Below are positions 28,797 to 43,734 of a DNA stretch of 64,000 nucleotides, piece by piece (within the stretch, counting starts at the first letter, position 1; every line of letters begins with the position of its first letter). Below the pieces are notes generated by a model. The model worked only from the letters and a program-made list of their open reading frames with translations, did not search any database and had not been told where the DNA came from. The DNA is from Candidatus Levyibacteriota bacterium. Lineage in GTDB: Bacteria > Patescibacteriota > Microgenomatia > Levybacterales > UBA12049. A program made the position numbers and the translations under genes. The stretch lies in assembly GCA_016214555.1 (NCBI GenBank), contig JACROF010000012.1, positions 70,066 to 134,065 of the forward strand, in the 5' to 3' direction.

Positions 28797-29180
28797 ATGA
28801 AAATTGTCTCTGCTCGACAATGGATTCAAAAATTATCTTATTCGTTATTTTTTGTGGATGTTGCGTATGCTGCCGATCCAGCTTCCTCTTGTGATTCTTC
28901 AGCTGTTATGACACAGCTTGGGTGTCTACCGAAAGATCCTGTACTCTTTGTTAGTAGTTTTTATGGTATTGGACTGAGTATGGTTGGTGGAGTAGCTCTT
29001 CTCTTTATCATTATTGGAGGTTACACAATTCTTACTTCTCGAGGGAATCCAAGTCAAATTAACGCAGGAAAAAGTTATATTTTTTACTCGATTGCTGGCC
29101 TTATTCTTGCAATATTTGGCTATCTCTTTATAGAGATATTTTTGGTTGATCTTCTTCATATACCTGGTCTTGGACACTAA
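28797..29180 (+). CDS. small secreted two-TM protein, VirB2/TrbC pilin-like (hypothesis)
   Basis: 127 aa. Signal peptide ending AYA-ADP. Mature ~100 aa with two hydrophobic helices separated by a short polar loop (TSRGNPSQINAGKS). Size and topology resemble TrbC/VirB2 T-pilin subunits. Stop is 2 nt before the next gene. Confidence 0.5.
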   Translation: MKIVSARQWIQKLSYSLFFVDVAYAADPASSCDSSAVMTQLGCLPKDPVLFVSSFYGIGLSMVGGVALLFIIIGGYTILTSRGNPSQINAGKSYIFYSIAGLILAIFGYLFIEIFLVDLLHIPGLGH

Positions 29181-29181
29181 A

Positions 29182-32100
29182 ATGAAAAAATATTTTTTGT
29201 TCTGCCTTCTTTTTATCGTAGGACTTTTTTTATTTACCACCTCTCAGCAAGCGTATGCTGTTTCGATAGATAGCAAAACTCTTATTGCGGCAGATGCATT
29301 ACCCCAGGATGGATCGTGGATTATTGATCCTGAGGTGACTAGAATCGGCAAAAACGCATCACGATCAGGGCAGTTATTGGATTGGACACTCAAGGATTAC
29401 CAATGGTCAACTGCAGCATCGCAGCAAAGTAGCGATAATCCTCTTGCATCATTTTGGATCATTATTCAGAGAATTGTTTATGCCTTGTTTTTAGTTGTAA
29501 TTCTTATAACGTCATTTATTCTCATTGTAACTAGAGGGAAAAGTCTGTCTGCTAAAAGATTTCTTCCGAGGTTTTTACTCGCAGTAATTCTTGTGACTTT
29601 TTCTTTTTCACTTATTCAATTTATTTATCAATTTGTTGATATTTTACAAGGATTTTTTCTTAACAATTCTCGTGGGCAAATTATTTCATCAAAAGATCTT
29701 TTATTTATAGGCTTTCAGTACACAGACTTTGAAGGACTTCGTCGATTCGGTTCGTCATTTGACGAGTCTGCATTTATGTCGTTGATCCTTGTTAAATTTA
29801 CTGCATTTACTTATTATGTTATGGCTCTTCTCCTTATTTTTAGAAAGATTCTTCTTTGGTTTTTTATAGTTCTCTCTCCCCTTTTCCCAATACTGCTCTT
29901 GTTCTATCCAATGAGGAATACGGGAAAGGTTTGGATCGGTGAGTTTTTTAGATGGGTACTTTACGCACCTCTTTTTGCTATTTTCTTATCGGGCCTTGTA
30001 AGATTGTGGGATTCTCCTTCAGGACTTCCTCTCCTTTTTAATTTTACTGGAGTAAAGCAGGGGGATATGGTATATCCGACTGCGGTAAATATTTTACTTG
30101 GTGGACCTGGGCAAAAAATCGGATTGAACAATAGCGTTAATCTTCCTGATACATTTGCACTTTATGTAGTGTCTCTTATCATGTTGTGGGCAGTTATTAT
30201 TCTGCCATTTATTCTTCTCCAGATTTTTTTAGATCACATGATGGCGTATAATTATCAAAATAATCCTATAACAAAACAAATTACTAATCTTATGGCTTCA
30301 AGGCTTGCGCCGCCCTCAAAGCCACTTGGTCCTCCTCCATCTTCTAATCAACCAGCAGGTCTTGCAAGAAATATTCCCTTTGGTAGGCATTTTGAGGTTC
30401 CATCGTCTGTTGGTGATGCTAAGGAGATTCCAAGAAGTTTTGCACAGCAAAATAAGTCTCAGACAGTAGTGAAGAAAAATGTTGTTACAAAATCCGTAGT
30501 GAATAATCTAGCCAATCTTTCAATTCCAACGATGAGGGATATTGCCAGATATGAAATAGAGAAAAGATCTCATGACACTTCTCGAATTGCAGAAATTGAA
30601 AGAACGAAAAAAACTCTTATTCAGATAGCAAGTCCGACAACTCTTTCTATTTCTAGTGAGCGAGAAAGATATCAGGCTATCAGGGAAAGGTTAAGACTTG
30701 CTTCTCAGAAAGGTGATACTGTTGCCACAAATATACTCCAGGCTGCAAATACATATAATTACTATTCTTCGCAAGACACTTCTTCGACCACGATTAATCA
30801 AGGAGTTAAAAATCTTGCTAATCCAGAGAGAATCCTTTCTACAGTGGAAAAAGAAAAAGTCGAAAAAATAAAAGAGAGAATTATTCAGAATGCTCTTGAG
30901 GGTAACCCTATTGCTAAACAAGTTGCTGCAGGCCTAAGTCAGTTCTCCTCAAGCCAACTTGCAGTTCTCAAACAAATACTTCAGGCATTATCGTCATCAG
31001 CTCTAAATCAGAACTCTTCTAATCAATATGAGTCGCTTCGCGAGCGTCTCGTAACCGCAAGCAATTCTGGGAATACAGTTGCAACTACGTTTATTTCTAC
31101 AATTGAAAAGTCATCTTCTGAGCAAGATGTTAAGAGTTTATTTGAGGCGTTAATTAAAGCTGAAAAAGAAGGAAATCCAATAGCAAAAGAGGTTATGAGC
31201 TCTGTTGATAAAAATGTCTCACAGGTATCCACAGAGAATTTAAAGCAGGTGATTAAAGAAGCTAAAGATAAAAAAGATCCATTAGGGGTAATGATTTTTG
31301 AGATGATGCAAGAATCATCAGTCAAAGAACAAAAAGTTCCCGCCTCAGCGGCAACGAAATTAAAAAGCGGCACTTTTCCTGTTGTTAATAGGATTCAAGA
31401 AGTATCTTTTGATGATTACGAAGCTGTGAAGAAAATGTGGAGGGAAAATTATAAAAATTTGAAGTCTGCTGGATTTAATGGTGATAGTAGAAGAGATGAG
31501 ATCAATAATGATATTTCACATATGCAAGAAACGATTAGCTTACTTTCTTCAGGGAATCAAGAGATGATCGAACAAGGAATGAGACAGGTATCTGATATTC
31601 TGCCATTTCTATTAATTGGAGGATTCTCTCAGACTGAAATTATTACCTATCTTAAGGCAAAATTGGAGGCTGCAAAGTCTACACTTGAAGACTTAACAGC
31701 GAAAGACGATGAAGAAGACACGCTTCTTGCTGCTGAAAAAGCTGTTAAGCACACCTCAAAAACTATGACGATGAGTGCTGAGGCGCCTATTTCTGCAAAG
31801 CAGGTTATTCCTCAAGAGGTTTCAACGGGGTCTGTGCATACGACTCTACTGTCTCCTCCTTTGGCTAGTGGGGCAACATCAATTTTTAATATAGTCAACC
31901 TCCCAATAGTTACCTTGCGAGATATTGTAAGAATTGACCAGAAAAGAGAGACAACAACAGACCAGAAGAGTGAAATCACTATTCTTAAGCAAAATCTTCT
32001 CAATATTGGACATCCTGAGAGGGTAACTTCAGTAGACGAGCGTGAAAAATATAAAACATTGCACACTCAGCTGGTTGAGGAGGATAAGAAAGGAAATCCT

Positions 32101-33150
32101 TCAGCAAAGATTATTATCAATGCAATTAGTGAGCTTGACAACCAAACGTCTGATAGCGAAATTGATAACGCAAATAAGTTTATTTCACTTCTTGGGCAGC
32201 AAATGATTCCAGGTGATAAAAATGAGGATAGGGAAAATGAGATTTCACAATTGATTTTGAGAGAAAGTGCTTCAAATCCTCTAGCTGAATCTCTTCGTGT
32301 GGCTTCACAGCAGTGGTATAACCTTCAGAAAGAAAAAACTAAAGATTTTCTTGAGAAAATTAGCAATCCTTCTCTCCTACCAACAGCCGCTGAGCAGATG
32401 CAGTATACGAAGCTAATGGATAGGATTTCTTTGGCAAGCTCAAACGGAAACAGCGTTGCATCATATGTAGTTAAAGCAATCCGTGAAAAAGATATAGATC
32501 ACGAAATACCTCAAATATATGTAAAAATTGCTGAAGGAGAAAGGAATGGAGATGAGCTTTCAACATATCTCATGAGAACTATCTATAACACAGCCTCACA
32601 TGATACTAAGATAGACGCTGAGTCTATTTTCCAAAAGACAGTATCACAGGGGAGAGATGGCGATCTCTTTGCTTCAAAACTCTTAAAAGAGATTGCAAAA
32701 ATCGCCAAACAATTAGGTAAAAAGACAACGCCTGTCACCTCTTTGCCTCATGCAAATCGAATACAGACTGTTACTCTTGATGATTATGAAGAGGTAAAAA
32801 GAATGTGGGAGGAGAATTATGCATCATTTCTTCTAGATTCTTCAAAATCTTCTGATGAGAAAAAGAGAATAATAGAAAAGGATGTTAATTCATTAACTCT
32901 AGCCATAAACTTGCTTTCATCAACTGATTCTGAGCAGATGAGAAGAGGAATGGATATGGTAAGCGATTTGTTGCCTTTTCTTCTCTTGGGAGGATTTAGT
33001 CAGCCTGAAATTATCGGGTATCTAAAGGCAAAACGTACTGCTGCAGAGTCTGTTTTTAAAAGTGAAAATAGCTTGAATGAGGAATTGGTTAGTAGAAATA
33101 AAAGACAGGAAAATCCAATACAACAGAAAGTTCAAGTCGTCGATGAATGA
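29182..33150 (+). CDS. giant (1322 aa) secreted polytopic membrane protein: N-terminal VirB6/TrbL-like multi-TM domain plus long modular repeat-containing hydrophilic C-terminal region
   Basis: ATG at 29182 (the track's 29146 is TTG). Signal peptide MKKYFLFCLLFIVGLFLFTTSQQAYA, then ~6 TM helices within the first ~370 aa. About 950 aa of hydrophilic sequence follow, with several repeated module types (see repeat features). Confidence 0.8.
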   Translation: MKKYFLFCLLFIVGLFLFTTSQQAYAVSIDSKTLIAADALPQDGSWIIDPEVTRIGKNASRSGQLLDWTLKDYQWSTAASQQSSDNPLASFWIIIQRIVYALFLVVILITSFILIVTRGKSLSAKRFLPRFLLAVILVTFSFSLIQFIYQFVDILQGFFLNNSRGQIISSKDLLFIGFQYTDFEGLRRFGSSFDESAFMSLILVKFTAFTYYVMALLLIFRKILLWFFIVLSPLFPILLLFYPMRNTGKVWIGEFFRWVLYAPLFAIFLSGLVRLWDSPSGLPLLFNFTGVKQGDMVYPTAVNILLGGPGQKIGLNNSVNLPDTFALYVVSLIMLWAVIILPFILLQIFLDHMMAYNYQNNPITKQITNLMASRLAPPSKPLGPPPSSNQPAGLARNIPFGRHFEVPSSVGDAKEIPRSFAQQNKSQTVVKKNVVTKSVVNNLANLSIPTMRDIARYEIEKRSHDTSRIAEIERTKKTLIQIASPTTLSISSERERYQAIRERLRLASQKGDTVATNILQAANTYNYYSSQDTSSTTINQGVKNLANPERILSTVEKEKVEKIKERIIQNALEGNPIAKQVAAGLSQFSSSQLAVLKQILQALSSSALNQNSSNQYESLRERLVTASNSGNTVATTFISTIEKSSSEQDVKSLFEALIKAEKEGNPIAKEVMSSVDKNVSQVSTENLKQVIKEAKDKKDPLGVMIFEMMQESSVKEQKVPASAATKLKSGTFPVVNRIQEVSFDDYEAVKKMWRENYKNLKSAGFNGDSRRDEINNDISHMQETISLLSSGNQEMIEQGMRQVSDILPFLLIGGFSQTEIITYLKAKLEAAKSTLEDLTAKDDEEDTLLAAEKAVKHTSKTMTMSAEAPISAKQVIPQEVSTGSVHTTLLSPPLASGATSIFNIVNLPIVTLRDIVRIDQKRETTTDQKSEITILKQNLLNIGHPERVTSVDEREKYKTLHTQLVEEDKKGNPSAKIIINAISELDNQTSDSEIDNANKFISLLGQQMIPGDKNEDRENEISQLILRESASNPLAESLRVASQQWYNLQKEKTKDFLEKISNPSLLPTAAEQMQYTKLMDRISLASSNGNSVASYVVKAIREKDIDHEIPQIYVKIAEGERNGDELSTYLMRTIYNTASHDTKIDAESIFQKTVSQGRDGDLFASKLLKEIAKIAKQLGKKTTPVTSLPHANRIQTVTLDDYEEVKRMWEENYASFLLDSSKSSDEKKRIIEKDVNSLTLAINLLSSTDSEQMRRGMDMVSDLLPFLLLGGFSQPEIIGYLKAKRTAAESVFKSENSLNEELVSRNKRQENPIQQKVQVVDE
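31381..31695 (+). repeat. intragenic ~105-aa repeat module copy A (RIQEVSFDDYEAVKKMW...LPFLLIGGFSQTEIITYLKAKLEAAKS)
   Basis: Protein-level duplication within the 1322-aa ORF. Copy A is ~40-45% identical to copy B, including DDYE.VK.MW.ENY, LPFLL.GGFSQ.EII.YLKAK and AA.S. Nucleotide level is diverged. Confidence 0.6.
32745..33070 (+). repeat. intragenic ~105-aa repeat module copy B (RIQTVTLDDYEEVKRMW...LPFLLLGGFSQPEIIGYLKAKRTAAES)
   Basis: Paralogous to copy A at 31381-31695. Conserved hydrophobic patch LPFLLxGGFSQ and basic YLKAK motif. Confidence 0.6.
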
Positions 33151-33193: not shown

Positions 33194-35866
33194 ATGCTTG
33201 GAAATTTATTTAGTTCTCATAAAGATCCTAAAGAGGAGTTGGTCTCGCCTCAAGAGCAAAATCCAGCAGATACAAGTACTGCTGCTAATACATTGACACA
33301 CATAGAGTCACGAATGGATCCAACGCTTAGGCAAAATGTCTCAGCGCTATCCCATCTTGATTCTCGTACTACGCAAGTTCTTCATCACGCTCAAGAAGAG
33401 ACAAGGCGCATTAAGCAAGCTCAAATACAGCCTGAACAAGTATTGCTAGGACTACTATACGATGAGGAAGTTTTTAAGCTACTTGAAGGTTTTGATGTTG
33501 ATGTTGCAAAGCTTGCCCAGGAAATTCAGAGTAAAGAAGAAGTAGGAAGTTTCCAAGAGCAGCCGATGTTGAGTAGCGCAAGTACTCAGCTATTTGAGCA
33601 GGCATATAGAGACGCAAAAACCAGAAACGCCAGCTTTGTTTCACCAGAGGATCTTTTGGTTGAGATTTGCAATTTATCTATTGATTCCGTAAAGCTCCTA
33701 GTGGAAAAGGGAGTTACTAAACAACATATTTTGGACAAATTATCGTCGTCTACAGAATACACCACGGGTAAAAAATCAGTTCTTGAACAATTCGCCATAG
33801 ATCTCACTGCTGAAGCAAAAGCAGGGAAATTGGATCCAATCGCAGGAAGAGATAGGGAAATTGACAGACTTGTTCACATTTTACTTCGAAGGACAAAAAA
33901 CAACCCAATAATTATTGGTGAAGCTGGAGTCGGTAAAACAGCGATTGTTGAAGGACTTGCACAGGAAATTGTTGCAGGAAGTATACCATCTGACCTTAAA
34001 AACAAAAAAATTTATCAGCTTGATCTTGCATCGCTTGTAGCTGGCGCTAGCCATAGAGGAGAGTTTGAGGAGCGACTAAAAGGGATAATCAATGAAACAA
34101 TTGCGTCACAAGGTCAAATAATCCTTTTTATTGATGAAATACATACCCTCATTGGGGCAGGTGACACTGACGGCGCTTTGGATGCTTCAAACATAATAAA
34201 GCCCCATTTAGCAAGAGGTCATATGCAGATTATTGGAACAACTACCACAGTTGAGTATAGAAAGCATTTTGAGAAAGATAAGGCTTTCGAGCGACGTTTT
34301 CAACCAATCCTTGCTGATGAACCATCTGAAGAGGCTGCTGTTGAAATGCTGAAAGTGTTAAGGCCAAAATATGAGAAATATCATGGTGTGACAATCCCTG
34401 ATGATACTTTGGTAGATGCCGTTAAGTTATCAAAAAAATATATTGGAGAAAGATATCTTCCTGATAAAGCAGTTGATCTTATCGATGAAGCTTCAGCAGA
34501 TGTAAAGCTTGGACGAATTTCTTTTAAGCAGGATGTAAAGGAATCGGGAGAAAACTCAAATGACACACCGCCTCGTTCACAGGCAACAACGGGTAATGAG
34601 GTGGTAAAGTCAGATATTGAGAGAGTTGTGAGCAATTGGACTGGTATTCCAGTTACAAAATTGACTGAAGACGAGAGTCAGAAGCTTCTTAAGCTTGAGG
34701 ATAATATTCATAAAAGACTTATCGACCAGCAAGAAGCAGTCGTTGCGGTATCTGAGGCTGTACGGAGAGGGAGAATTGGGTTAGCTCCGGCAAATAGGCC
34801 AATTGCATCATTTATATTTCTCGGTCCAACAGGCGTTGGCAAAACAGAATTAGCAAAAACGCTTGCCGAGTTACTTTTTGGGCGTGATGATGCTCTTGTG
34901 AGGCTTGATATGAGTGAATATATGGAAAAGCATGAGGTAGCTAAGTTGATTGGGGCTCCTCCAGGATACGTTGGTTATGAAGAAGGAGGTCAGTTGACAG
35001 AGGCGGTTCGGGCAAAGCCATACTCAATAGTTCTACTTGATGAGGTAGAAAAAGCACATCCTGATGTTTTTAATATTCTTTTACAGCTTTTGGAAGATGG
35101 TCGATTAACAGACAATAAAGGTAATACTATTTCGTTCAAAAATACTATTGTTATAGCTACCTCCAATATTGGAAGTTCGCTTATTCAGCAACAGCTTAGT
35201 GAAAAAGGAGAGCCACAATCGCAGGAAGCTTTTACTAAAGAGTTTAGTGATTTGACAACGCTTGTAACAGCAGAGTTAAGAAAGTTTTTTAAGCCAGAAC
35301 TTCTTAACCGATTTGATGACGTGGTGATGTTTAAGCCTTTGAGAAAAGCAGATATGACGCAGATTGCAAAGCTTGGTATCGGAAAAACAGCAAAATTGCT
35401 TGAAGAGCAGGGGTATCATGTTCAGACAACGGATGCTGCGATTGCGCAGCTTGCGCAGGAAGGATACGATCCTGTATATGGAGCAAGGCCGCTTAGAAGG
35501 CTTATCCAGTCATCTATCGAAAATCGAGTAGCTCTTATGATCATAGGGAAGGAATTTATGCCTGGAGATACTATTGTGATTGATTATAACTCGACAAAAG
35601 GAGGTTTTAATTTCTCAAAAGGCGGTGGTCAGAGTGTAGTTGGTCCAGAAAAAAACATCGATAATCGAGACAATAATACTCAACCTCTTGATATGGTTGA
35701 AAAATCTCATCTTCCTGAGTCAGGAACAGGGGAAGCTCAGGCGTTACCTAAGGAGCCTGAGTACGCGCAGCCCAGCTTCAATCCTCCATTCTTGAGTAAT
35801 CAAAATAACAACGTCAATGGTGAGACTTTTGTAAAGAACGAAATCACTTCTGCCTCAAGCAATTAA
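33194..35866 (+). CDS. Hsp100/Clp-family double-AAA+ ATPase (ClpC/ClpA-like architecture, no ClpB M-domain, no recognisable ClpP-docking IGF/IGL loop), Q/N-rich C-terminal tail
   Basis: 890 aa. Two Clp_N repeats. NBD1 Walker A GEAGVGKT and Walker B ILFIDEIH. Only ~45 aa between NBD1 and NBD2. NBD2 Walker A GPTGVGKT, Walker [11 protein letters not shown], sensor ATSNIG and GARPLRR. No G-F/G-L tripeptide after the sensor-1 region. Confidence 0.85.
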
Positions 35867-35937: not shown

Positions 35938-36267
35938 ATGTCTGCCCTGTTTTTCTACCCATTTTACGTATTGAGATTTTGGTATGGTGAAGGTCCTGTT
36001 GTTGTACTCAAGCATTTCTATATTTTTAATCGTGTATTTCTTGATTTTTTTTCTGTAAAAATTCTTCTAAAAACCTTTTTTCTTCCTGTAAAAAATGAAT
36101 ATCGCGATGGTTTGGTCGGATTTTCCATTGGAATTGGGATTTTTATGAAAAGCTGTTTACTTATCATTGCAGCATTTTTATTTATGATACTTCTTGTTTT
36201 TGAAGTGGTGATTTTTGGAGGATATATGGCATTTCCTTTGATTACAGTAGGATTGTTGTTGTGGTAA
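35938..36267 (+). CDS. small polytopic membrane protein, unknown function
   Basis: 109 aa, 3 hydrophobic helices. Stop overlaps the start of the following membrane-anchored Clp-like gene, suggesting translational coupling. Confidence 0.4.
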   Translation: MSALFFYPFYVLRFWYGEGPVVVLKHFYIFNRVFLDFFSVKILLKTFFLPVKNEYRDGLVGFSIGIGIFMKSCLLIIAAFLFMILLVFEVVIFGGYMAFPLITVGLLLW

Positions 36268-36269
36268 TT

Positions 36270-38669
36270 ATGGATAGACAACTCGTATCAATATATTTGT
36301 TTTATAGAAGTATAGAAGTAAAATTTATAAGAGTTGCTCTTCCAGTGATTCTTCTGATGTGGATTCCCCTTGTGCTTATTACTAACGAATCCCCTAATGT
36401 TCCCATTGTTATTTTTAATCTTTATCTTATGGGAGAACTTTTTTATCGGTATAAGATTTGTACATTAAGAACAAAAAATACCCTTCTGGATCAGGAAGAT
36501 CCTTATAAGAGTATGTCTTTAGAGGTAGCTTCAGTATTTCAAAATGCTTCATCAACAAAGGAAATATTAAGACGCTTGTTTAGTCATCAACAGGTCATTT
36601 TTGGGTTACAAAGAATGGGTGCTTCTCCGCGAGATGTAGTGAGTATTGAATACGAAGCCAACGTGTTGCTGCTAAGAGCGTCTGAGCTCGCTAAAAAAAT
36701 ACAGGGAACAAAGATTACTCTTATAGATGTGCTCAATTCTTATCTGATTGTCTCAGATGAGAAGACAAATTTCCTTTTACATAAGCGATTAAAAGAGAAT
36801 GACTTGCTGCAGATTTCTGTCTGGGTTAGGAAGATCTATCAATTTGAGGAAAAACCAAGGGAGCTATTTTTTGCAAATTACGGAGGAGGATTGGGGCAAT
36901 GGCTTGTGTCTGGGTGGACCTTGGAAACTAAAAAGTATACACAAGTTTTTCCTCAGAAGGATCTTAATCTTGATGTTTCTATTATTGGCAGAGAAAAAGA
37001 ATATCAGTTATTACAAGAAAGCTTATTAAAACCTGAAAGAAATAATATTCTAATTGTTGGAAAAACAGGGGTAGGCAAAGAGCAGCTGCTTAGAAGGCTG
37101 GCAGAGGATAGTTTTAGTGGAAAACTTGATAAGAATCTTTCATATAAAACAATTCTTGAAGTACTCGTTGGATCACTTGTCGCTGGAGCAAATCAACAAG
37201 GCGATCTTCAGGAGCGTTTAAAAGAAATCATTGAGGAGGTTAGCCATGCAGGCAATGTTATTCTTTATATTCCTGAATTCCAGAACCTTCTTGGCGGGAC
37301 CAGCTTTTCACTTGATCTTTCTGGGGCATTAATGCCATTCCTTCGTGATGGAAAGCTTCCGATTATCGCAAGTGTCACTGACGAAAATTTTAAAAGATAT
37401 ATACAAGGTAAACCTATCTCTGAAATGTTTTCTGATATTCATCTTACGGCTCCCAGTAGTAATCAGGCTGAGCAGATGATAATGGAAAAGATCGTGGAGC
37501 TTGAAAGAAAACATGCAGTAATAATTACTTATCCTGCTGTCAAGACATCGGTGATGTTTGCACAAAAATATTCTGATAGTTCTGAGTTACCAGGAAGTGC
37601 AATTGATCTACTGTCTGATGCAATGAGTAAAAAAGCTTCTGAAGATATTCATGATGCACATAATAAGTTTCGTTTAGTTACTGAGAAAGATATTATTCAT
37701 ACAGTTGAACAGCGAACAAGTATTGCGTTGGATGATCCAACAGAAGAAGAGAGTTCAAGGCTACTTCATCTAGAATCTATTATGCATGAGCGGATCATAG
37801 GTCAAGATCAGGCTATTAAAGCTATTGCAGAATCTCTTCGAAGACTCAGAACAGGGGTTCAGAGTCTAGATAGACCTACCTCCTTTTTGTTCCTGGGCCC
37901 AACAGGTGTTGGTAAAACTGAAGTAGCAAAAGTATTATCAAATATTTATTTTAATGGTGAAGCGAATATGATCCGTCTTGACATGAGCGAGTATGCATCA
38001 ACCGATGGTATTGAGAGATTAATAGGAGCATCTACCAGACAAAACGATCTGAGAGGTGAGTTGACTGAGAAAATCCATGATCATCCAAATTCCCTTGTCC
38101 TTCTTGACGAATTTGAGAAAGCTCATTCGTCGGTGGCAAATCTCTTCCTTCAGATTCTTGATGATGGTAGATTGACCGATGGGAGAGGTAATACTGTTTC
38201 TTTCAGTAACGCGATTATTATCGCAACATCGAATGCTGGAGCAAATTTTATTCACGATGCGATAGAAAAAAATGTATTTCTTGATAGCTCGTTTCAGAAG
38301 CAATTGAGAAGCTTTCTTCAGGCAAATAATATATTCAAGCCAGAATTACTCAACCGCTTTGATGATATTGTTGTTTTTCGGCCACTCTTAAAGGATGATG
38401 TTAGGAAAGTAACAGAAATTTTGTTAAGAGATCTTATAAGTCACATGAAAGAAAAAGACATAACACTCTCCGTTGAGGATATTGCAGTGTCTAAAATAAT
38501 ATCAGAAGGTTATGATAAAGAATATGGAGCAAGACCAATTCGGAGATATATCCAAGACAATCTTGATGATCTTATTGCGAAAGAAATCCTTAATAAATCA
38601 ATTAATAGAGGAGATAGGGTAAGAATTGGCGTCAATCAAATAAATGAGTTTGTTATTTATCGAATTTAG
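36270..38669 (+). CDS. membrane-anchored Hsp100/Clp-like ATPase with degenerate (catalytically dead) first AAA+ domain and intact second AAA+ domain
   Basis: ATG at 36270 (GTG at 36261 in the track). Two N-terminal TM helices, then a Clp_N-like repeat pair. NBD1 Walker A reads VGKTGVGKEQL (canonical T/S replaced by E), Walker B reads ILYIPEF (D replaced by P), and the Arg finger is lost. NBD2 is canonical ([36 protein letters not shown]). Confidence 0.8.
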   Translation: MDRQLVSIYLFYRSIEVKFIRVALPVILLMWIPLVLITNESPNVPIVIFNLYLMGELFYRYKICTLRTKNTLLDQEDPYKSMSLEVASVFQNASSTKEILRRLFSHQQVIFGLQRMGASPRDVVSIEYEANVLLLRASELAKKIQGTKITLIDVLNSYLIVSDEKTNFLLHKRLKENDLLQISVWVRKIYQFEEKPRELFFANYGGGLGQWLVSGWTLETKKYTQVFPQKDLNLDVSIIGREKEYQLLQESLLKPERNNILIVGKTGVGKEQLLRRLAEDSFSGKLDKNLSYKTILEVLVGSLVAGANQQGDLQERLKEIIEEVSHAGNVILYIPEFQNLLGGTSFSLDLSGALMPFLRDGKLPIIASVTDENFKRYIQGKPISEMFSDIHLTAPSSNQAEQMIMEKIVELERKHAVIITYPAVKTSVMFAQKYSDSSELPGSAIDLLSDAMSKKASEDIHDAHNKFRLVTEKDIIHTVEQRTSIALDDPTEEESSRLLHLESIMHERIIGQDQAIKAIAESLRRLRTGVQSLDRPTSFLFLGPTGVGKTEVAKVLSNIYFNGEANMIRLDMSEYASTDGIERLIGASTRQNDLRGELTEKIHDHPNSLVLLDEFEKAHSSVANLFLQILDDGRLTDGRGNTVSFSNAIIIATSNAGANFIHDAIEKNVFLDSSFQKQLRSFLQANNIFKPELLNRFDDIVVFRPLLKDDVRKVTEILLRDLISHMKEKDITLSVEDIAVSKIISEGYDKEYGARPIRRYIQDNLDDLIAKEILNKSINRGDRVRIGVNQINEFVIYRI

Positions 38670-38722
38670 GCAGGTAATTCTTGACAAAGCATCTTTAGGC
38701 TCTTAACCTAAAGATATCTACA

Positions 38723-39877
38723 ATGAAAAAGAGAGCATACAAAAGGAAGCATGTTGTTTTAAAGACAAAACGACATAAAAAATTTCACCATAAAGTTATA
38801 TCTTTTTTTAGGGGAGATGGCGGAATTTATGTAATTTTTATTCTTGCTACCGCAATGGCTGGAGCATTTGCCTTAACAGGTGGTATTCTTCCTCAGCTTA
38901 ATCCTACTCCACCTGCATCAAGCCAAGTTGATATAGATACCGAGTCAGCAAAGCAAAGCAGCGAGAATGCTTTGCAGCTTGTTGACATAAAGCCAAAACC
39001 GACCGAGGTGCCTACGCCTACCAGTGAAATTACTCCCAGTACCTCGCCTAGTATCTCTCCTAGCATCTCGCAGCCTCCTCCTGTTCAGGAATGTTATAAC
39101 AAGACGTTAGTGACTTTGATACTTGATTATTCAAATTCAATGCTAACACCAAATTCAAGTCCAAAATATACTGCTTTAAATTCTGCGCTTGGATCTTTCT
39201 ATACACAATTGAGTGGTTATGCTAATGCTGGCATCGGAGCTCAAGCATTTACTGGAAAAGATTCTGGGAATACACCGCTAGATGGTGTATTTAACCTGTT
39301 GAATTACAAATTAGTAAAGAATGTTTCATCTTCAGATAAGCAAAAAATTACTCAAGTAGATAAAGCTGTTTTAGAAAATAGTAATGGTGGAGGAACCTAC
39401 ATGAGAAATGGGTTTTCCTATACTATTTCCAAATTAGAATCAGCTCCCTCTTCTTTTGCAGGATATAGAAAAGTTGCCATAATTTTTTCTGATGGTATTC
39501 CTGAGGAGACATGGGAAGATAGAGAATCCCACAACGGGGATGCAAATTCTTCTTCAGTTTGCTTAGGGAGTGGTAGATATCAGCAGAGATGTTTTTCAAT
39601 TTATCAAGACCCACGAGTAAATTCAACAAACAGATTACCTGATCTAGTAAAGGGACTAAAAGATATAACAGATAGTGTATACGTCGTTGGTATTTATGAT
39701 AGCAAAAGTGGTGAAGGGCTAGTTTTTAAAGATAATTTGATTAGCCTGTTACAGACGATTGCAGAGAGGAGCACGACCCCATTCTATCAATTTATAGACT
39801 TAAAAGATGATCCAGCGGCGGCATTGCAAAAATTAAATCCAGCTTTTCAAAATATTTTTAAAGACGTTTGTAAGTAA
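38723..39877 (+). CDS. membrane-anchored von Willebrand factor type A (vWA) domain protein with MIDAS motif
   Basis: 384 aa. Highly basic N-terminus (KKRAYKRKHVVLKTKRHKK), one TM helix, a P/S/T-rich linker, then a vWA domain with LILDYSNSM (DxSxS MIDAS) and later AIIFSDGIPEE. Confidence 0.7.
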   Translation: MKKRAYKRKHVVLKTKRHKKFHHKVISFFRGDGGIYVIFILATAMAGAFALTGGILPQLNPTPPASSQVDIDTESAKQSSENALQLVDIKPKPTEVPTPTSEITPSTSPSISPSISQPPPVQECYNKTLVTLILDYSNSMLTPNSSPKYTALNSALGSFYTQLSGYANAGIGAQAFTGKDSGNTPLDGVFNLLNYKLVKNVSSSDKQKITQVDKAVLENSNGGGTYMRNGFSYTISKLESAPSSFAGYRKVAIIFSDGIPEETWEDRESHNGDANSSSVCLGSGRYQQRCFSIYQDPRVNSTNRLPDLVKGLKDITDSVYVVGIYDSKSGEGLVFKDNLISLLQTIAERSTTPFYQFIDLKDDPAAALQKLNPAFQNIFKDVCK

Positions 39878-39976
39878 CAATATATTGTCGGGTGGAGCAC
39901 TCTTTTTTAAATATTAGCCTATATTTTTTGTTCTCTATTGAAGCAGGCACCACAAATCTGGTATACTTACCAGACT

Positions 39977-41137
39977 ATGCCAGCATTACAAAGAAGTGAA
40001 TTTGCTCTAGCGCTTAATCAAGTTGCAACAGAACGAGGAGTTGACGTATCTGTCGTTTTGGAAACGGTTCAAAATGCTATCGTTGCCGCCTATAGAAAAG
40101 ATCATCCAGGAGTTGACGTTGAGGAGTATGCTGCAGAATTAAATCCTAATACTGGTGAAGCAAAAATTTTGCATAACGGAAAAGATGTGACTCCTCCAGG
40201 ATTTGGTCGTATCGCAGCACAAACAGCAAAGCAAGTTATCCTTCAAAAGATTCGCGAAAAAGAAAAGGAAGCGATAATTTCTGATTATAAAGACAAGCTT
40301 GGACAAATTGTAAATGGTACAGTTCTTCGTTTTGCTGGTCCTAATGTTATTGTTGATATTGGTAAAACTGAGGCTATTATGCCTCCCCAAGAGCAAATTC
40401 AGAACGAAAAATATTATCAAAATCAGAGACTTGTAGTTTTTATTAAAGATATTCATGAAGGTACAAAGGGGGAGGAAGTTATTGTTTCGCGCTCGGACAA
40501 CGGATTGCTTGAAGGTCTTTTCAAGCGTGAGGTTCCTGAGGTAGCTCAGGGAAGCGTTGTGATTAGGTCTATCGTTCGTGAGGCAGGCAACAGAGCAAAA
40601 ATTGCTGTTGCTTCATCACAAAGTGGTATTGATCCTGTTGGCAGTTGCGTGGGGCAAAAGGGAGTGCGTGTCCAAGCAATTATTCAAGAAGTTGGTGGAG
40701 TCGAAAAAATCGATATTATTCAATTTCAAGAGGAATCTTCTTCTTATATCGCAGCTGCTTTATCCCCAGCAAAGAATGTTAGAGTTGAGCTTAAGGAGGA
40801 AGAGAAGATTGCTCACGTTTTTGTTCCTCAGGAAGAGCTATCATTGGCAATTGGTAAAGATGGTCAAAATGTAAGATTAGCTTCAAAATTAACAGGCTAT
40901 AGAATCGAAATTCAAGGAACAGAAGGCGCTTCAGCTGAGACAAAGGTTGAGGAAAATATATCAAAAGATGAGCCTAAAAAAGAAGCTGAAACAACAGAAG
41001 AAAATGCAAAAGATGAAAGTGACTCAAATGAGGGTGCATCAGATGAGACTGCTGCTTCCGATGAAGTTTCTGAGGTCACAATTCCTGATGAAGCCCCTGA
41101 AACAGAAAAGACTGAAGAAGTCGTTGAGAAAGAATAA
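39977..41137 (+). CDS. nusA: transcription termination/antitermination factor NusA (with acidic C-terminal tail)
   Basis: N-terminal domain, S1 domain (GQIVNGTVLRF...), two KH domains (GIDPVGSCVGQKGVRVQAI; IGKDGQNVRLASKLTGY). ATG at 39977 chosen; the track start 39938 is TTG. Start is uncertain. Confidence 0.85.
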   Translation: MPALQRSEFALALNQVATERGVDVSVVLETVQNAIVAAYRKDHPGVDVEEYAAELNPNTGEAKILHNGKDVTPPGFGRIAAQTAKQVILQKIREKEKEAIISDYKDKLGQIVNGTVLRFAGPNVIVDIGKTEAIMPPQEQIQNEKYYQNQRLVVFIKDIHEGTKGEEVIVSRSDNGLLEGLFKREVPEVAQGSVVIRSIVREAGNRAKIAVASSQSGIDPVGSCVGQKGVRVQAIIQEVGGVEKIDIIQFQEESSSYIAAALSPAKNVRVELKEEEKIAHVFVPQEELSLAIGKDGQNVRLASKLTGYRIEIQGTEGASAETKVEENISKDEPKKEAETTEENAKDESDSNEGASDETAASDEVSEVTIPDEAPETEKTEEVVEKE

Positions 41138-41188: not shown

Positions 41189-42640
41189 ATGGCAAATCAA
41201 GCAACATCTCATACAAAATTATTTCCTCCTGTAGTTGCCGTACTTGGTCATGTTGATCATGGCAAAACCACGCTTCTTGACGCAATTAGAGATACCTCAA
41301 TTGCAGAAAGAGAACACGGCGGTATCACTCAAAAAATAGGTGCATCTTCTATAGAGGTAATGCATGAAGGCAGCAAGCGAGCTATTGCATTCATTGATAC
41401 GCCAGGCCATGAGGCTTTTGCTCAGATGAGGAGCCGTGGGGCATACGCAGCTGACATTGGGCTTCTTATTGTTTCATCAGTTGATGGCGTTATGCCTCAA
41501 ACTAGAGAAAGTATTAAAGTTCTCCAAGGCTCAAAAATTCCTTTTATTGTTGTATTAACAAAATCAGATCTTCCTACTAAAAACCCAGAAAAAGTTAAGG
41601 GGCAAGTTCTTCGCGAGGGAGTCATGCTTGAAGGTATGGGTGGGGATGTGCCAGTTATAGAGGTTGCCTCAAAAACAAAAAAGAATATAAAAGAGTTATT
41701 GGATCTTATTCTGCTTGTCCAAGAGCTCAGTAATGCTGATTCATCTACAGTCTCTCCAAGTCATCCTCTTAGAGCTATTGTTATTGAGTCGAGGTTAGAT
41801 CAAAAAGCTGGTCCTCGAGCAACAGTAGTCGTCAAAGATGGGACAATAAAAGTTCGTCAGGATGCTTACTGCGATAATCAACAGTTTAGGATTCGATCTC
41901 TCATGAATGATAATGGCGCTTCACTTCAGGATGCGACAATTGGAGCAGCAGTAGAGATTTTAGGCTTTCTCAATGTGCCTGCAGTGGGTAGCACGATTAC
42001 TGACGTTGTAAATGTTGAAGTAAAGACTGTTCAGGAGCAAATACCAAAGGCCGTGTATTCTCCTGCCGCCGACCAAACTGAATTGCCTGTTATTTTACTT
42101 GCAGACTCCCAAGGGTCACTTGAGGCTATAAAATATTCTCTTCCTGAAAAAGTAAAGTTGTTAGAGCAAAAAACAGGAGAAGTAACTGAGAGCGATATCA
42201 TGCACGCAAAATCAACAGGTGCTCTTGTTATTGGGTTTAATTCAAAAATTAGACCAGATGTCGCAAAGCTAGCAAGAACAGAGAAGGTTTTGTGTAAAAA
42301 CTACACAATAATTTATGAACTGCTTAGTGAGCTTGCGGATGTAATGGAAGGGAAAGCGCTTTCTCTTATTGAGGAGATTTATGGAACGGCAAAAATATTG
42401 GCTAAATTTCCTTTTGAGAAGACTTTTGTACTTGGAATAGGCGTAGTTGATGGTAGAATTGCTCGTGGAGATAAGATCCGCATAGTAAGAGGGGACAATC
42501 TTATTGGAGAAGCCCAGATCAATTCTCTTCGAATAGGGAAAAATCCAATAAATAAAGTTGAAAAAGGTAATGAGGCAGGTATTATTATTACTCCAGAACT
42601 TGACTTTGAAGTAGGAGATATGGTAATATCCCATGAATAA
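41189..42640 (+). CDS. infB: translation initiation factor IF-2 (short form: G domain through C-terminal domains, N-terminal region absent)
   Basis: 483 aa. G1 GHVDHGKTTLLD, G3 DTPGHEAF, G4 TKSD. Shine-Dalgarno-like aaaaggag 11 nt upstream. Position after nusA is conserved. Confidence 0.9.
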   Translation: MANQATSHTKLFPPVVAVLGHVDHGKTTLLDAIRDTSIAEREHGGITQKIGASSIEVMHEGSKRAIAFIDTPGHEAFAQMRSRGAYAADIGLLIVSSVDGVMPQTRESIKVLQGSKIPFIVVLTKSDLPTKNPEKVKGQVLREGVMLEGMGGDVPVIEVASKTKKNIKELLDLILLVQELSNADSSTVSPSHPLRAIVIESRLDQKAGPRATVVVKDGTIKVRQDAYCDNQQFRIRSLMNDNGASLQDATIGAAVEILGFLNVPAVGSTITDVVNVEVKTVQEQIPKAVYSPAADQTELPVILLADSQGSLEAIKYSLPEKVKLLEQKTGEVTESDIMHAKSTGALVIGFNSKIRPDVAKLARTEKVLCKNYTIIYELLSELADVMEGKALSLIEEIYGTAKILAKFPFEKTFVLGIGVVDGRIARGDKIRIVRGDNLIGEAQINSLRIGKNPINKVEKGNEAGIIITPELDFEVGDMVISHE

Positions 42641-42651
42641 TATAGGATATT

Positions 42652-43734
42652 ATGGACAATCAGGCACTTCAAAAAATAAAAGATATTATAGCTGGTAGTC
42701 AGTCAACGGCTATTATTGTTGGGGCAAATCCTTCCATTGATCAAATGGCTGCTGCTCTTTCTTTCTATTTATCTCTTCAGGCTCAAGGTAAAGCTGTAAG
42801 TGTAATATCCCCTACGCAACCAATCGTTGAAGTTTCATCTCTTGTCGGCATTGATAAAGTAGCTACTTCAAATGAATCTGCAGGAGGAGATTTGGTTGTC
42901 TCATTTCCATATAGAGAAGGAGAAATTGAGAAAGTATCCTACACCATAGACAATAACCTACTCAATATTGTAGTTAAGGCTGGTGAGCTTGGTCTTAATT
43001 TTTCTGAGCAGGATGTTGTATTTAAAAGAGGTTCATCCAAGCCAACTCTTGTTATAGCAATTGGTATAACATCACTTCATGATGTTGAATCTAATTTCCC
43101 ACAAGGATCGCTTGGAGACGTTCCAATTATTAATATTGATAATAAGAGAGAAAATGAGGGTTATGGATCAATGATATTAGTCTCTGCAAAATTCTCTTCA
43201 CTCTCAGAGCAGGTTGCTGATCTCATGCTCAATCTTAGTTATGATTTTGATGTTGATGTCGCTCAGAATTTATTGTCAGGTATTACTAATGCTACCAATA
43301 ATTTTCAAAGTCAAACTACATCTTATTTAGCTTTTGAAATAGCATCTATTTTGCTTAAAAAAGGTGCTCAAAGAATGCAAAATTCTCTACAAGCTCAAGC
43401 TGCAGTTCCTCAATCTCGTCCATCATTTGTCCAGGCTCAGTCACAGCAGGTCCAGCCTCTTCCAGCGCAACCTCAGCCACAACAGAGACAAAAAGAAGAG
43501 CGTCAGGATCGTCGGGAGGCTATTAGGGAAGCTCTCAGGGCTCAATCACAGACAAGGCAACATGACCAGAGGACTCAATCTCAAAGACCAGAAAGAGGTT
43601 TTCAGCAGGCTCAAGGGCCAATCTCGCCTCAGCAGGTCCAGCAACCTCAATTACAACCAAAGCAGCAAAATGATCAGAAGCCACCTTCAGATTGGCTAAC
43701 GCCAAAGGTTTATAAAGGGTCATCTTCTGTTTAG
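42652..43734 (+). CDS. DHH-family (NrnA-like) protein with degenerate catalytic motifs and Gln/Pro-rich C-terminal tail
   Basis: 360 aa. N-terminal region aligns in pattern with the NrnA DHH domain, but the canonical D-H-H motif is not evident and the PDxDAxGS region reads PSIDQMAAAL. C-terminal ~110 aa is Q/P/R-rich low complexity. Occupies the post-infB slot where DHH phosphoesterases are often found. Confidence 0.55.
   Translation: MDNQALQKIKDIIAGSQSTAIIVGANPSIDQMAAALSFYLSLQAQGKAVSVISPTQPIVEVSSLVGIDKVATSNESAGGDLVVSFPYREGEIEKVSYTIDNNLLNIVVKAGELGLNFSEQDVVFKRGSSKPTLVIAIGITSLHDVESNFPQGSLGDVPIINIDNKRENEGYGSMILVSAKFSSLSEQVADLMLNLSYDFDVDVAQNLLSGITNATNNFQSQTTSYLAFEIASILLKKGAQRMQNSLQAQAAVPQSRPSFVQAQSQQVQPLPAQPQPQQRQKEERQDRREAIREALRAQSQTRQHDQRTQSQRPERGFQQAQGPISPQQVQQPQLQPKQQNDQKPPSDWLTPKVYKGSSSV

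Follow-up and report, generated by a model that had tools for sequence, protein, structure and literature searches.

Extracellular adhesin-type vWA domains (integrin I-like domains) are found in the Gram-positive pilus-tip adhesins SpaC, RrgA, GBS104 and PitA and in Mfa5 of P. gingivalis, and also in Plasmodium TRAP, the anthrax toxin receptors and the mussel protein PTMP1. These proteins combine the vWA fold with a complete MIDAS and lie outside the cell, where they are held by an LPXTG/sortase signal, a pilin module or a eukaryotic type I anchor; Ig-like stalk domains are a further feature of the group. Other vWA proteins are partners of single-ring MoxR-class ATPases, as in the pairs RavA-ViaA, NorQ-NorD, CbbQ-CbbO and BchI-BchD and in the ternary MoxR-vWA-beta-propeller systems; and BatA and BatB (Rv1481/PRK13685) belong to the MoxR-DUF58-Bat operons of Bacteroides and Leptospira, BatA having both N-terminal and C-terminal membrane segments. 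In PilB of Streptococcus sanguinis, a vWA domain is grafted on a pilin. We found nothing specific in the literature on a vWA-Clp pairing, on membrane-anchored Clp proteins in Patescibacteria, or on vWA adhesins in Microgenomates; the sole Patescibacteria-related mention of vWA that we found concerns host MoxR-vWA sensing systems.

The vWA gene described here lies in a 64-kb window (the whole stretch of DNA that was analysed) and its product is 100% identical to the NCBI entry ‘VWA domain-containing protein [Candidatus Levybacteria bacterium]’. In sequence-profile and structure comparisons, this protein is matched best by the extracellular adhesin-type vWA (integrin I-like) domains. The original prediction of a membrane-tethered vWA protein directly behind a pair of AAA+ genes is confirmed by the exact ORF, whose ATG is the first start past an in-frame stop, by the 53-nt gap that separates it from the upstream gene TM-Clp, and by a hydrophobic helix near its N-terminus (Table 1). 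We propose, with a probability of about 0.6, that it is a lineage-specific surface ligand-binding protein of Levybacteria (Microgenomates/CPR) which operates independently of Clp.

Table 1. Coordinates of the vWA gene, the parts of its product and its neighbours, numbered from the first letter of the window.
Feature	Coordinates	Strand	Basis
ClpB/ClpC-like ATPase, 890 aa (context)	33194..35866	+	domain and PDB matches
mem109 + TM-Clp module (context, separate from the vWA unit)	35938..38669	+	two-gene module upstream, conserved
mem109, 109-aa membrane protein	35938-36267	+	directly upstream of TM-Clp
TM-Clp, membrane-anchored Clp/Hsp100 paralog	36261-38669	+	likely start ATG 36270
Putative sigma-70-like promoter of vWA gene	38681..38709	+	TTGACA 38681-38686, 17-nt spacer, TAACCT 38704-38709, 13 nt before ATG
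vWA gene, membrane-anchored vWA/MIDAS protein	38723..39877	+	complete CDS, 384 aa + stop
Residues 1-34, very basic N-tail, predicted cytoplasmic	38723..38824	+	charge count, alignment
Residues 35-56, sole hydrophobic helix (signal anchor), ends in GGxxP	38825..38890	+	hydropathy, AF2, conservation
Residues 57-96, conserved juxtamembrane segment, predicted extracellular, ‘LQLVDIKxKP’ motif	38891..39010	+	alignment
Residues 97-122, P/T/S-rich linker of variable length	39011..39088	+	alignments
vWA domain, residues 123-384	39089..39874	+	invariant columns, cysteine census, AF2 secondary structure, fold matches
MIDAS D135-Y-S137-N-S139	39125-39139	+	invariant alignment columns
MIDAS T225	39395-39397	+	invariant alignment column
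MIDAS D257	39491-39493	+	invariant alignment column
Terminator-like hairpin GGGTG-GAG-CACTC + T-run	39890..39910	+	13 nt after stop; weak evidence

Scanned on its own, the window protein gave merely a sub-threshold match to VWA in Pfam (17.4 bits against a cut-off of 23.8) and matched no NCBIfam model at E<=1, so that scans at the level of the family were needed. In these, 27/29 members matched VWA_2 (best 1.6e-17) and 18/29 matched VWA (best 7e-17), and PDB vWA domains were matched by the family profile at 3.7e-12. The MIDAS residues D135, S137, S139, T225 and D257 are unchanged in alignments of 29 close and 35 distant relatives; the head otherwise evolves fast (37% pairwise identity), yet this site is invariant. 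Together, the family matches and the invariant MIDAS bear out the vWA assignment of the original prediction. The motif is complete (DxSxS...T...D) and the head would be expected to bind a divalent cation. The modelled fold is of the Rossmann-like alpha/beta type, with six strands flanked by helices, and strand beta4 is followed by a 55-residue insert (residues 263-317) which presumably sits roughly where tip adhesins carry their ‘arms’.

A census of cysteines in the family found Cys124 and Cys280 in 29/29 members and Cys383 in 28/28, with a fourth cysteine at position 290 in 23/29 and at position 265 in the remaining six. Cys124 and Cys383 mark the two ends of the vWA domain, and the first and last cysteines coincide, in a profile alignment, with the terminal cysteines of the extracellular A-domains of PTMP1, which likewise stand at the first and last domain positions. 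Two disulfides probably stabilise the vWA head. A Zn(Cys)4 site was considered instead and rejected; judging from the AF2 fold topology, from which the location of the insert was also taken, Cys124 and Cys383 would lie at the base of the fold and Cys280 and Cys290 near the MIDAS face.

The charges around the single helix are strongly asymmetric throughout the family: the 34 residues before it hold 13 K/R (also the family median) and 4 His with one acidic residue, against 3 K/R and 6 acidic residues in the 40 that follow. Because of these positive-inside charges, the P/T/S-rich linker (block-mean pLDDT of 47-58 in the AF2 model) and the four conserved cysteines, we consider that the vWA head is almost certainly outside the cell, in an N-in/C-out orientation. 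The same charges bear on the N-terminus, for which contact with nucleic acid or with an acidic partner had been suggested; its basic character is real, and can be adequately explained as a membrane-orientation signal. The extreme charge is a trait of the subfamily, absent from distant relatives, and within the tail it is residues 22-34 (‘HHKVISFFRGDGG’) that are conserved, at 72% pairwise identity compared with 30% for residues 1-21.

Conservation within the protein peaks in the hydrophobic segment (79% mean pairwise identity), which AF2 modelled as one continuous 20-residue helix (residues 32-51). The segment includes an invariant MAGAFAL(T/S)GG, within which AFA|L could be an alternative signal-peptidase site, and G53, G54 and P57 hardly vary in the wide family, as seen in an alignment of 35 distant relatives. 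The juxtamembrane segment has 70% pairwise identity, as against 37% for the head; its LQL motif recurs in distant relatives, and AF2 confidence is low across residues 57-96. Conservation of 70-79% across anchor and juxtamembrane segment is far beyond that of a passive tether and suggests some specific partner in the membrane, a point against the reading that we prefer. No paralogs of this module, such as a general sorting signal might have, were found in the window or at any locus compared.

The anchor-stalk-vWA layout recurs in 84 clusters returned at E<=1e-30 by an exhaustive profile search, which form a family without a dedicated Pfam or NCBIfam model. Its N-terminal transmembrane anchor sets the vWA protein apart from the adhesin-type proteins with their sortase, pilin or type I anchors, as do the lack of Ig-like stalk domains and the conserved juxtamembrane ‘GGxxP...LQL’, which has no described counterpart. 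The protein ends in ‘...FKDVCK’ directly after the vWA domain, without further domains, and neither a C-terminal LPXTG-type sorting signal nor a pilin or Ig-like stalk domain was detected in it; a sortase gene does occur in the window, at 55191-55925, unlinked to the vWA gene. It differs from BatA and BatB in having a single, N-terminal helix and in the lack of any MoxR or DUF58 gene in the 64-kb window. The window protein matches none of the BatA-type models, and those models (NF047508, PRK13685) gave only weak matches to a minority of its distant relatives, so we do not place it in that group; we also know of no association of BatA with conserved cysteines or a P/T linker. No PADLOC defence-system model matched the vWA protein, the pilin-like protein, mem109 or the giant membrane protein, and the Clp proteins showed only generic Clp-type similarity to DolB and PDC-M37B.

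The neighbouring ATPases likewise depart from the MoxR pattern. Both are two-ring Clp/Hsp100 proteins (AAA_2, ClpB_D2-small) with ClpC/ClpB as their best PDB matches; bpMoxR is a weak secondary match, and the single-ring MoxR-class ATPase of the described vWA pairs has no equivalent next to the vWA gene. The ClpB/ClpC-like ATPase has two intact ATPase modules besides its Clp_N domain, without an M-domain or a ClpP-docking loop. In TM-Clp, D1 is degenerate (GKE, IPE) and its arginine finger is gone, and pore-loop tyrosines are missing; given the missing tyrosines and the degenerate D1, this protein is unlikely to thread or extract substrates. The ATPase domains have to lie in the cytoplasm; the vWA head, predicted to be outside, would not share a compartment with them, as the partners in MoxR-class pairs do.

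The original prediction also made the vWA protein a working partner of the Clp-type pair, and proposed neighbourhood conservation as its check. In 15/15 relatives that carry the vWA gene, it comes directly after TM-Clp, with 30-95 nt between them; in all 15 loci, however, collinearity extends all the way from the pilin-like gene to PNPase (a block of about 17 kb in the window), which leaves the adjacency without independent weight. Eight divergent TM-Clp loci were set against it, six with orthologs of 39-46% identity and two very distant: no vWA-family homolog was found near TM-Clp at any of the eight, within up to 9 kb on either side (0.36 kb downstream in L016), and ClpB and TM-Clp were separated or unlinked there, and are not a conserved pair. 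The linkage is thus conserved when seen from the vWA side, not from the Clp side, and does not extend across lineages as that of the MoxR-class pairs does. In the divergent loci the position before nusA holds Band_7 and signal peptidase genes, or genes for a secreted Cys-rich protein and a sortase, or a gene for an N-anchored protein that is unrelated, or one for an IS200 transposase; elsewhere it is empty. From these comparisons, the vWA gene sits in a variable slot between the mem109-TM-Clp module and nusA. Its product also has the lowest identities of the block (32-43% excluding the closest genome, compared with 73-88% for NusA).

Scanning the region as a single sequence for promoters/terminators gave no excess over shuffled sequence (47 against 42.2; 8 against 10.9), and conserved promoters were revealed only when intergenic regions were compared across genomes. 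In 9/13 loci a TTGACA box precedes the vWA ATG by 40-47 nt, and in 11/13 by at most 70 nt; in 8 loci a TAnnCT box lies 17 nt after it, the rest of the 30-95-nt intergenic region being unconserved. By this comparison, the vWA gene is predicted to have a conserved TTGACA-N17-TAnnCT promoter of its own, which also distinguishes it from the vWA genes of MoxR-class pairs. The search found no terminator in the gap that separates TM-Clp from the vWA gene, which would permit read-through co-expression; the terminator-like hairpin 3′ of the vWA gene is seen in this genome only.

In the reading that we prefer, the vWA gene would be transcribed from its own promoter and the protein held in the membrane, with its N-terminus inside, by the basic cytoplasmic tail and one transmembrane helix; the 40-residue juxtamembrane segment and the flexible P/T/S linker would raise the vWA domain off the surface, where an acidic residue of some external ligand might be bound by the MIDAS cation, in the manner of integrin I-domains and bacterial pilus-tip adhesins. 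This candidate ligand could belong to a host or neighbouring cell, or could itself be another protein of the envelope. A cytoplasm-facing vWA domain that presents targets to a Clp-type ATPase, as a Clp analogue of MoxR-vWA systems, is by comparison hardly tenable: although the genes are adjacent here and in close relatives, the MIDAS is intact, and the VWA_2 family includes BatA-like MoxR partners, the topology, linker and cysteines place the head outside, the degenerate TM-Clp seems ill-suited to the task, and both the vWA-Clp linkage and the ClpB/TM-Clp pair dissolve outside one collinear clade. Such a ‘Clp-vWA machine’ owes its appearance, as far as sequence can tell, to synteny throughout one clade, and does not stand up to the topology. 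A topologically corrected form of the idea would add the vWA protein, in this clade alone, as an accessory subunit to a membrane complex of mem109 and TM-Clp, docking on the TM-Clp helical hairpin and/or on mem109, with its basic tail touching the Clp_N-like domain and the ATPase controlling display, conformation or turnover of the external head. TM-Clp is membrane-anchored, hence intramembrane or tail contacts would suffice, and the position of the vWA gene at all 15 loci carrying it, the missing terminator, an anchor region twice as conserved as the head and the kept composition of the basic tail are each consistent with this. We nevertheless regard it as unlikely, given that adjacency within a collinear block is uninformative, that the eight divergent mem109-TM-Clp loci lack the vWA gene, that this gene has a putative promoter of its own, that TM-Clp is unlikely to thread or extract substrates, and that the GGxxP/LQL anchor is common to the much wider family, in which the TM-Clp link is absent from all six lineages sampled. 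It is highly unlikely, in our estimation, that the tail-TM-juxtamembrane module plugs into mem109-TM-Clp so that the intact D2 ring of a Torsin-like TM-Clp uses ATP to toggle the MIDAS head from low to high affinity and back, or from exposed to hidden; if true, bacteria would here have an ATP-driven counterpart of integrin inside-out activation, by which an ultra-small episymbiont controls its attachment.

Two further alternatives concern the helix itself. It might serve as the h-region in a long Sec signal peptide, with cleavage at A-F-A|L (after residue 50) releasing a soluble vWA protein that re-attaches via its conserved N-terminal segment; the invariant ‘MAGAFAL’ provides small residues at -3/-1 and a Gly at -4 after an 11-residue hydrophobic core, and a signal peptidase gene occupies the equivalent slot of one locus (L097). 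This, too, we think improbable, as being the most conserved part of the protein would be unusual for a discarded signal peptide, the AxA motif is lost in distant relatives which keep GGxxP, and the AF2 helix runs without a break. Alternatively, ‘xG(D/S)G + hydrophobic helix’ could be a class III prepilin-like signal, or the LQL motif could mediate strand addition, so that the vWA head tops a fibre made from the nearby VirB2-like pilin, in the manner of S. sanguinis PilB or the sortase-pilus tip adhesins. In favour of this are the best structural matches, which are the pilus-tip adhesins SpaC, PitA, GBS104, RrgA and Mfa5; a Gly-rich motif immediately before the hydrophobic helix in most of 35 diverse relatives; and a T4SS_pilin-like gene (28797-29180) located 9.5 kb upstream. 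It is made quite unlikely by the failure of the prepilin N-terminal domain (TIGR02532/N_methyl) to match any of 29 (Pfam) or 35 (NCBIfam) members and by the lack of a C-terminal sortase signal. Moreover, the protein differs from PilB in having no prepilin motif, no Glu at +5 and no pilin globular module, with about 65 residues between helix and vWA domain instead; type IV pilus genes are absent from the 64-kb window; and two loci (L098 and L101) have the pilin-like gene and the giant membrane protein without a vWA gene.

Attachment to other cells is the presumed way of life of CPR/Patescibacteria, of whose surface binding proteins, to our knowledge, very few are known. A part in attachment or envelope assembly is reasonable to propose for a family of small, membrane-anchored MIDAS proteins this widespread, and the recombinant vWA head is directly testable. 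The practical value of our analysis is mostly corrective, in that the vWA gene looks like one for an ordinary surface binding protein and not like part of a new ATPase-vWA machine.

The mem109-TM-Clp pair is the more unusual side finding of the region. Searches with the N-terminal 346 aa of TM-Clp were uninformative, returning mostly fragments and generic Clp N-domains, and the matches listed by a metagenome scan with the TM-Clp alignment were dominated by generic ClpB/ClpC, owing to universal D2 motifs; local hmmsearch on those matches yielded two useful TM-Clp loci, L016 and L017. Clustered at 90% identity, TM-Clp proteins make up about 90 clusters. At all eight divergent loci mem109 lies directly upstream of TM-Clp, and it is this combination of mem109 with a pore-loop-less TM-Clp that is the genuinely conserved, and undescribed, pairing here. 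Comparison across genomes also revealed a conserved TATACT box upstream of mem109.

By profile, fold and MIDAS alike, the product of the vWA gene belongs to the vWA superfamily. The ORF, identical to an NCBI protein named 'VWA domain-containing protein', lies in a chromosomal stretch (GC ~37-40%) of Candidatus Levybacteria (Levyibacteriota; Microgenomates group, Patescibacteria/CPR) in which all the genes around it share one strand. Searched alone, the protein falls short of the Pfam cut-off (E 0.0054, 17.4 bits vs 23.8) and has no NCBIfam match; the domain search is positive at family level, where VWA_2 is matched by 27 of 29 aligned relatives (best 1.6e-17) and VWA by 18 of the 29 (best 7e-17). 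Among solved structures the family profile matches mussel PTMP1 (3.7e-12), CLCA1 (1.7e-6), TRAP (5.8e-6), S. sanguinis PilB (1.6e-5) and RrgA (7.6e-5). An alignment-based AlphaFold2 model (mean pLDDT 77.8, pTM 0.68; mean >85 in most 10-residue blocks of residues 121-384) has the strand and helix order of a vWA domain, and Foldseek returns SpaC, PitA, GBS104, Rpn10, CMG2/ANTXR, NorD, integrin I-domains and vWF A3 at probability 1.0. The MIDAS residues D135, S137, S139, T225 and D257 are invariant in 29 close relatives and in 35 with identities as low as 22%. Thus the original prediction of a membrane-tethered vWA domain with an intact MIDAS is upheld, the sole hydrophobic segment forming the anchor.

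Features of the locus (window positions) and regions of the vWA protein (residues, with mean pairwise identity)
Feature	Position	Strand	Remarks
hrcA, grpE, dnaK, 145-aa ORF, dnaJ		+	first genes of block, in this order
T4SS_pilin-like gene		+	127 aa; PF18895 25 bits, slightly below cut-off
Polytopic (giant) membrane protein gene		+	1334 aa
Pilin-like gene to giant protein gene, leading to ClpB-like gene	28797-33150	+	triad
ClpB/ClpC-like ATPase gene	33194-35866	+	890 aa
mem109	35938-36267	+	109-aa membrane protein
TM-Clp	36261-38669	+	802 aa; second Clp/Hsp100 paralog, N-terminal membrane hairpin
mem109-TM-Clp pair	35938-38669	+	
Slot from TM-Clp to nusA	38670-39937		
vWA promoter boxes	38681-38709		
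Inverted repeat	38693-38713	+	CTTTAGG-N7-CCTAAAG
vWA gene	38723-39877	+	384 aa
nusA extended -10 promoter	39938-39967		TTGAAG-N18-TATACT
nusA start region	39938-39980	+	
nusA, infB, 360-aa protein, rpsO, pnp		+	after vWA gene, in this order
infB (IF2)	41189-42640	+	483 aa
360-aa protein gene	42652-43734	+	
Sortase and 769-aa protein genes	55191-58227	-	
N-tail, first part	residues 1-21		basic; 30%
N-tail, juxtamembrane part	residues 22-34		cytoplasmic; 72%
Hydrophobic segment	residues 35-56		AlphaFold2 helix 32-51; 79%
Conserved segment	residues 57-96		'...QVxIDxDSAKQSSExALQLVDIKxKP'; 70%
Linker	residues 97-122		P/T/S-rich, length variable; 47%
vWA domain	residues 123-384		55-residue insert after strand beta4; 37%

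The charge imbalance around the helix (13 K/R before it; 3 K/R and 6 acidic among the 40 residues that follow it) predicts, under the positive-inside rule, an N-in/C-out orientation; P/T/S linkers are typical of extracytoplasmic stalks. Three cysteines recur throughout the relatives, Cys124 and Cys280 (29/29 each) and Cys383 (28/28), and a fourth is found at position 290 in 23 of 29 and at position 265 in exactly the remaining six. The first and last bracket the vWA domain and match, in the profile alignment, the cysteines at the two ends of the PTMP1 A-domains, which are extracellular; an N-to-C disulfide clasp is characteristic of vWF-type A domains. The simplest reading of this pattern is that the head would carry two disulfides, which would place it in an oxidising location, outside the cell. 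The N-terminal tail (residues 1-34) has 13 K/R, 4 His and 1 acidic residue, and 13 K/R of 34 is also the family median. By the region identities the anchor is about twice as conserved as the head, and the gene as a whole is the least conserved of the block, at 32-43% across relatives (79% in L009, the closest genome) vs 73-88% for NusA, 70-73% for the ClpB-like protein and 47-51% for TM-Clp.

The vWA gene follows TM-Clp, the membrane-anchored Clp/Hsp100 paralog, in all 15 vWA-bearing loci examined (found through six protein look-ups and among seven GTDB species representatives). From the pilin-like gene to PNPase, all of them are collinear with the window for as many of its genes as they include (with Lon-like AAA and RNase J genes downstream in six, and FtsK reached in two), so that adjacency to TM-Clp is no stronger evidence than adjacency to nusA. 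The TM-Clp family, defined by a three-sequence profile, comprises ~90 clusters (681-1360 bits), none with a Clp_N Pfam match, above a sharp fall to ordinary ClpC (<=599 bits). Eight divergent loci were compared: six with members at 39-46% identity (L096-L101) and two very distant ones from a metagenome scan (L016, L017). A homolog of mem109 is directly upstream of TM-Clp in all eight (E 3e-33 to 3e-39 in the six; 6e-7 and 2e-6 in the distant two), and the vWA family, its anchor module and its head have no match at E<=1 within <=9 kb around the gene (0.36 kb downstream in L016). TM-Clp is followed by nusA at once in L096; by Band_7 and signal peptidase S26 in L097, a secreted Cys-rich protein, sortase and large surface proteins in L098, a minus-strand 140-aa ORF in L099, an IS200-type transposase in L100 and an unrelated N-anchored S/P-linker protein plus a minus-strand ORF in L101, each then by nusA; and, in L017, a locus without nusA, by a membrane protein judged MFS-like by eye and by PolX. 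Nor do the ClpB-like gene and TM-Clp form a fixed pair: there is no ClpB-like gene upstream of TM-Clp in L096 or L097, and proteases (S8, M4) or an AddA-like helicase-nuclease separate the two in L098-L101. Hence it is mem109 and TM-Clp that form the conserved module, with the vWA gene filling a variable slot in one clade. Clp-vWA linkage is confined to that collinear clade (15/15, vs 0/8 divergent loci). Across Microgenomates (the window and L096-L101) the slot varies by lineage and may be empty; most of its occupants are envelope- or secretion-related.

We favour, with a probability of about 0.6, a protein that faces outward on a conserved stalk, binds its ligand in a metal-dependent way and is expressed from its own promoter. 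A conserved MIDAS on a fast-diverging surface is what one would expect if the protein served surface recognition or adhesion in an organism presumed dependent on other cells; the protein would work like extracellular adhesin-type vWA/I-domains. The original prediction had made it a partner of the adjoining Clp-type ATPases by analogy with MoxR-vWA systems, from which it differs in the class of the ATPase, in compartment and in the lack of conserved linkage. In both Clp proteins the ATPase domains must lie in the cytoplasm, and TM-Clp begins with a helical hairpin that exposes just ~6 residues on the outside, so that a MIDAS on the predicted outside-facing head could not pass a target to the ATPase. 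With the linkage also limited to one clade, a cytoplasmic MoxR-like partner of a Clp remodeller is disfavoured, and very improbable. Any contact with an ATPase would have to be made via the membrane helix or the 34-residue tail; a corrected form of the idea, in which the protein docks onto mem109/TM-Clp within the membrane, draws on the unexpectedly strong conservation of the anchor, and we consider it unlikely. A cleaved, secreted variant carries similarly little weight, and placement at a filament tip somewhat less again. Among known systems, a sortase-pilus tip adhesin was rejected (the protein has neither sorting signal nor stalk domains), as were a type IV pilin (no prepilin motif) and a BatA-like protein (neither model match nor operon context).

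The vWA family is broad: when 1.84 billion representatives were searched exhaustively with its profile, 4916 proteins matched at E<=1e-3, 349 of them at E<=1e-10 and 84 at E<=1e-30. Diverse members inspected are mostly 300-380 aa and keep the full layout: a short N-tail, a Gly-rich motif, a helix ending GGxxP, ~25 residues and an 'LQL' motif; a linker of variable composition, P/T-rich in many; and a Cys, the vWA domain (invariant MIDAS, SDGxPE and QDP) and a C-terminal Cys. Only the Levybacteria subfamily has the very basic tail. Prepilin N-terminal models were matched by no member scanned, type IV pilus genes are absent from the window, and no paralog of the anchor was found in the window or the fetched loci. 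A literature search found neither a vWA-Clp pairing nor such a vWA family in Patescibacteria; the family is undescribed but structurally conventional.

Intergenic comparison revealed TTGACA-N17-TAnnCT (TAACCT, TACGCT or TACTCT) upstream of the vWA gene in eight loci, amid sequence otherwise not conserved; the TTGACA box lies 40-47 nt before the ATG in 9 of 13 loci and <=70 nt in 11. A perfect 7-bp inverted repeat overlapping the -10 box could serve as an operator or fold into an RNA hairpin at the transcript 5' end. The nusA gene has its own extended -10 promoter (TG before the -10 box), common to relatives and overlapping the mechanical ORF start (TTG 39938); the true start is probably the ATG ~39 nt further downstream ('MPALQRSEF...'). 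A TATACT-like box, with no more than one mismatch, precedes mem109 in most of 16 loci, among them each of the six divergent loci. Each having its own promoter motif, [mem109-TM-Clp], [vWA] and [nusA...] would be separate units, with read-through from TM-Clp into the vWA gene possible, as no terminator was detected between them. A weak hairpin and T-run 3' of the vWA stop occur in this genome only.

The mem109-TM-Clp pair, not the vWA gene, is the most unusual feature of the neighbourhood. In 10 orthologs and 90 family members of TM-Clp, D1 has a Walker A of GxGKE (Thr to Glu), a Walker B of I-P-[E/D] (Asp to Pro) and no arginine finger, D2 is intact (Walker A/B, sensor 1, arginine finger, sensor 2), and neither pore loop has a tyrosine, that of D2 being two residues shorter; among full-length members, 77 of 78 carry a hydrophobic segment at the N-terminus. 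Threading by ClpB/Hsp104 needs pore-loop tyrosines, which makes a canonical unfoldase an unlikely role for TM-Clp. By our own comparison it is like the Torsins, membrane-bound and pore-loop-less. D1 is still intact in L016, and the sole annotation is 'ATP-dependent Clp protease ATP-binding subunit'. The multi-pass mem109, often overlapping TM-Clp, is paired with it in every locus covering its upstream side (L001-L017, L096-L101), the two very distant ones included.

The ClpB-like protein, nearest to ClpC and ClpB structures (E 4e-208), has complete ATPase motifs. The M-domain is missing (~10 residues in place of the ~46 of ClpC), as is the GF loop that docks ClpP, and the D1 pore loop is SHRG, not KYRG, in 10/10 orthologs, so that the protein would be without the usual DnaK/MecA regulatory handle; its gene shares a cluster with hrcA-grpE-dnaK-dnaJ. 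The triad of T4SS_pilin (VirB2-like), giant protein and ClpB-like genes recurs in the divergent Microgenomates loci L098 and L101 (also L099, L100), with no VirB4 nearby in divergent loci. The giant protein, up to ~2000 aa elsewhere, has no Pfam match; its C-terminal part has a clear internal duplication, in which '...NRIQEVSFDDYEAVKKMWRENY...LPFLLIGGFSQTEIITYLKAK' recurs as '...NRIQTVTLDDYEEVKRMWEENY...LPFLLLGGFSQPEIIGYLKAK'.

Downstream, IF2 is short (bacterial IF2 is typically ~700-900 aa), and the 360-aa protein, without a Pfam match, has an N-terminus that looks DHH/NrnA-like by eye and ends in a long low-complexity stretch rich in Q and P; both genes hold their positions in all relatives. 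Beside a sortase gene (244 aa), the 769-aa protein has a weak Baseplate_J-like match (E 3.5e-9) and may either serve as substrate for a sortase or be a surface protein of phage origin. Four public MAG records (GTDB; L009, L011, L012, L015) are titled 'uncultured Gammaproteobacteria bacterium' despite collinearity with the Levybacteria region, and are evidently mislabelled Patescibacteria assemblies.
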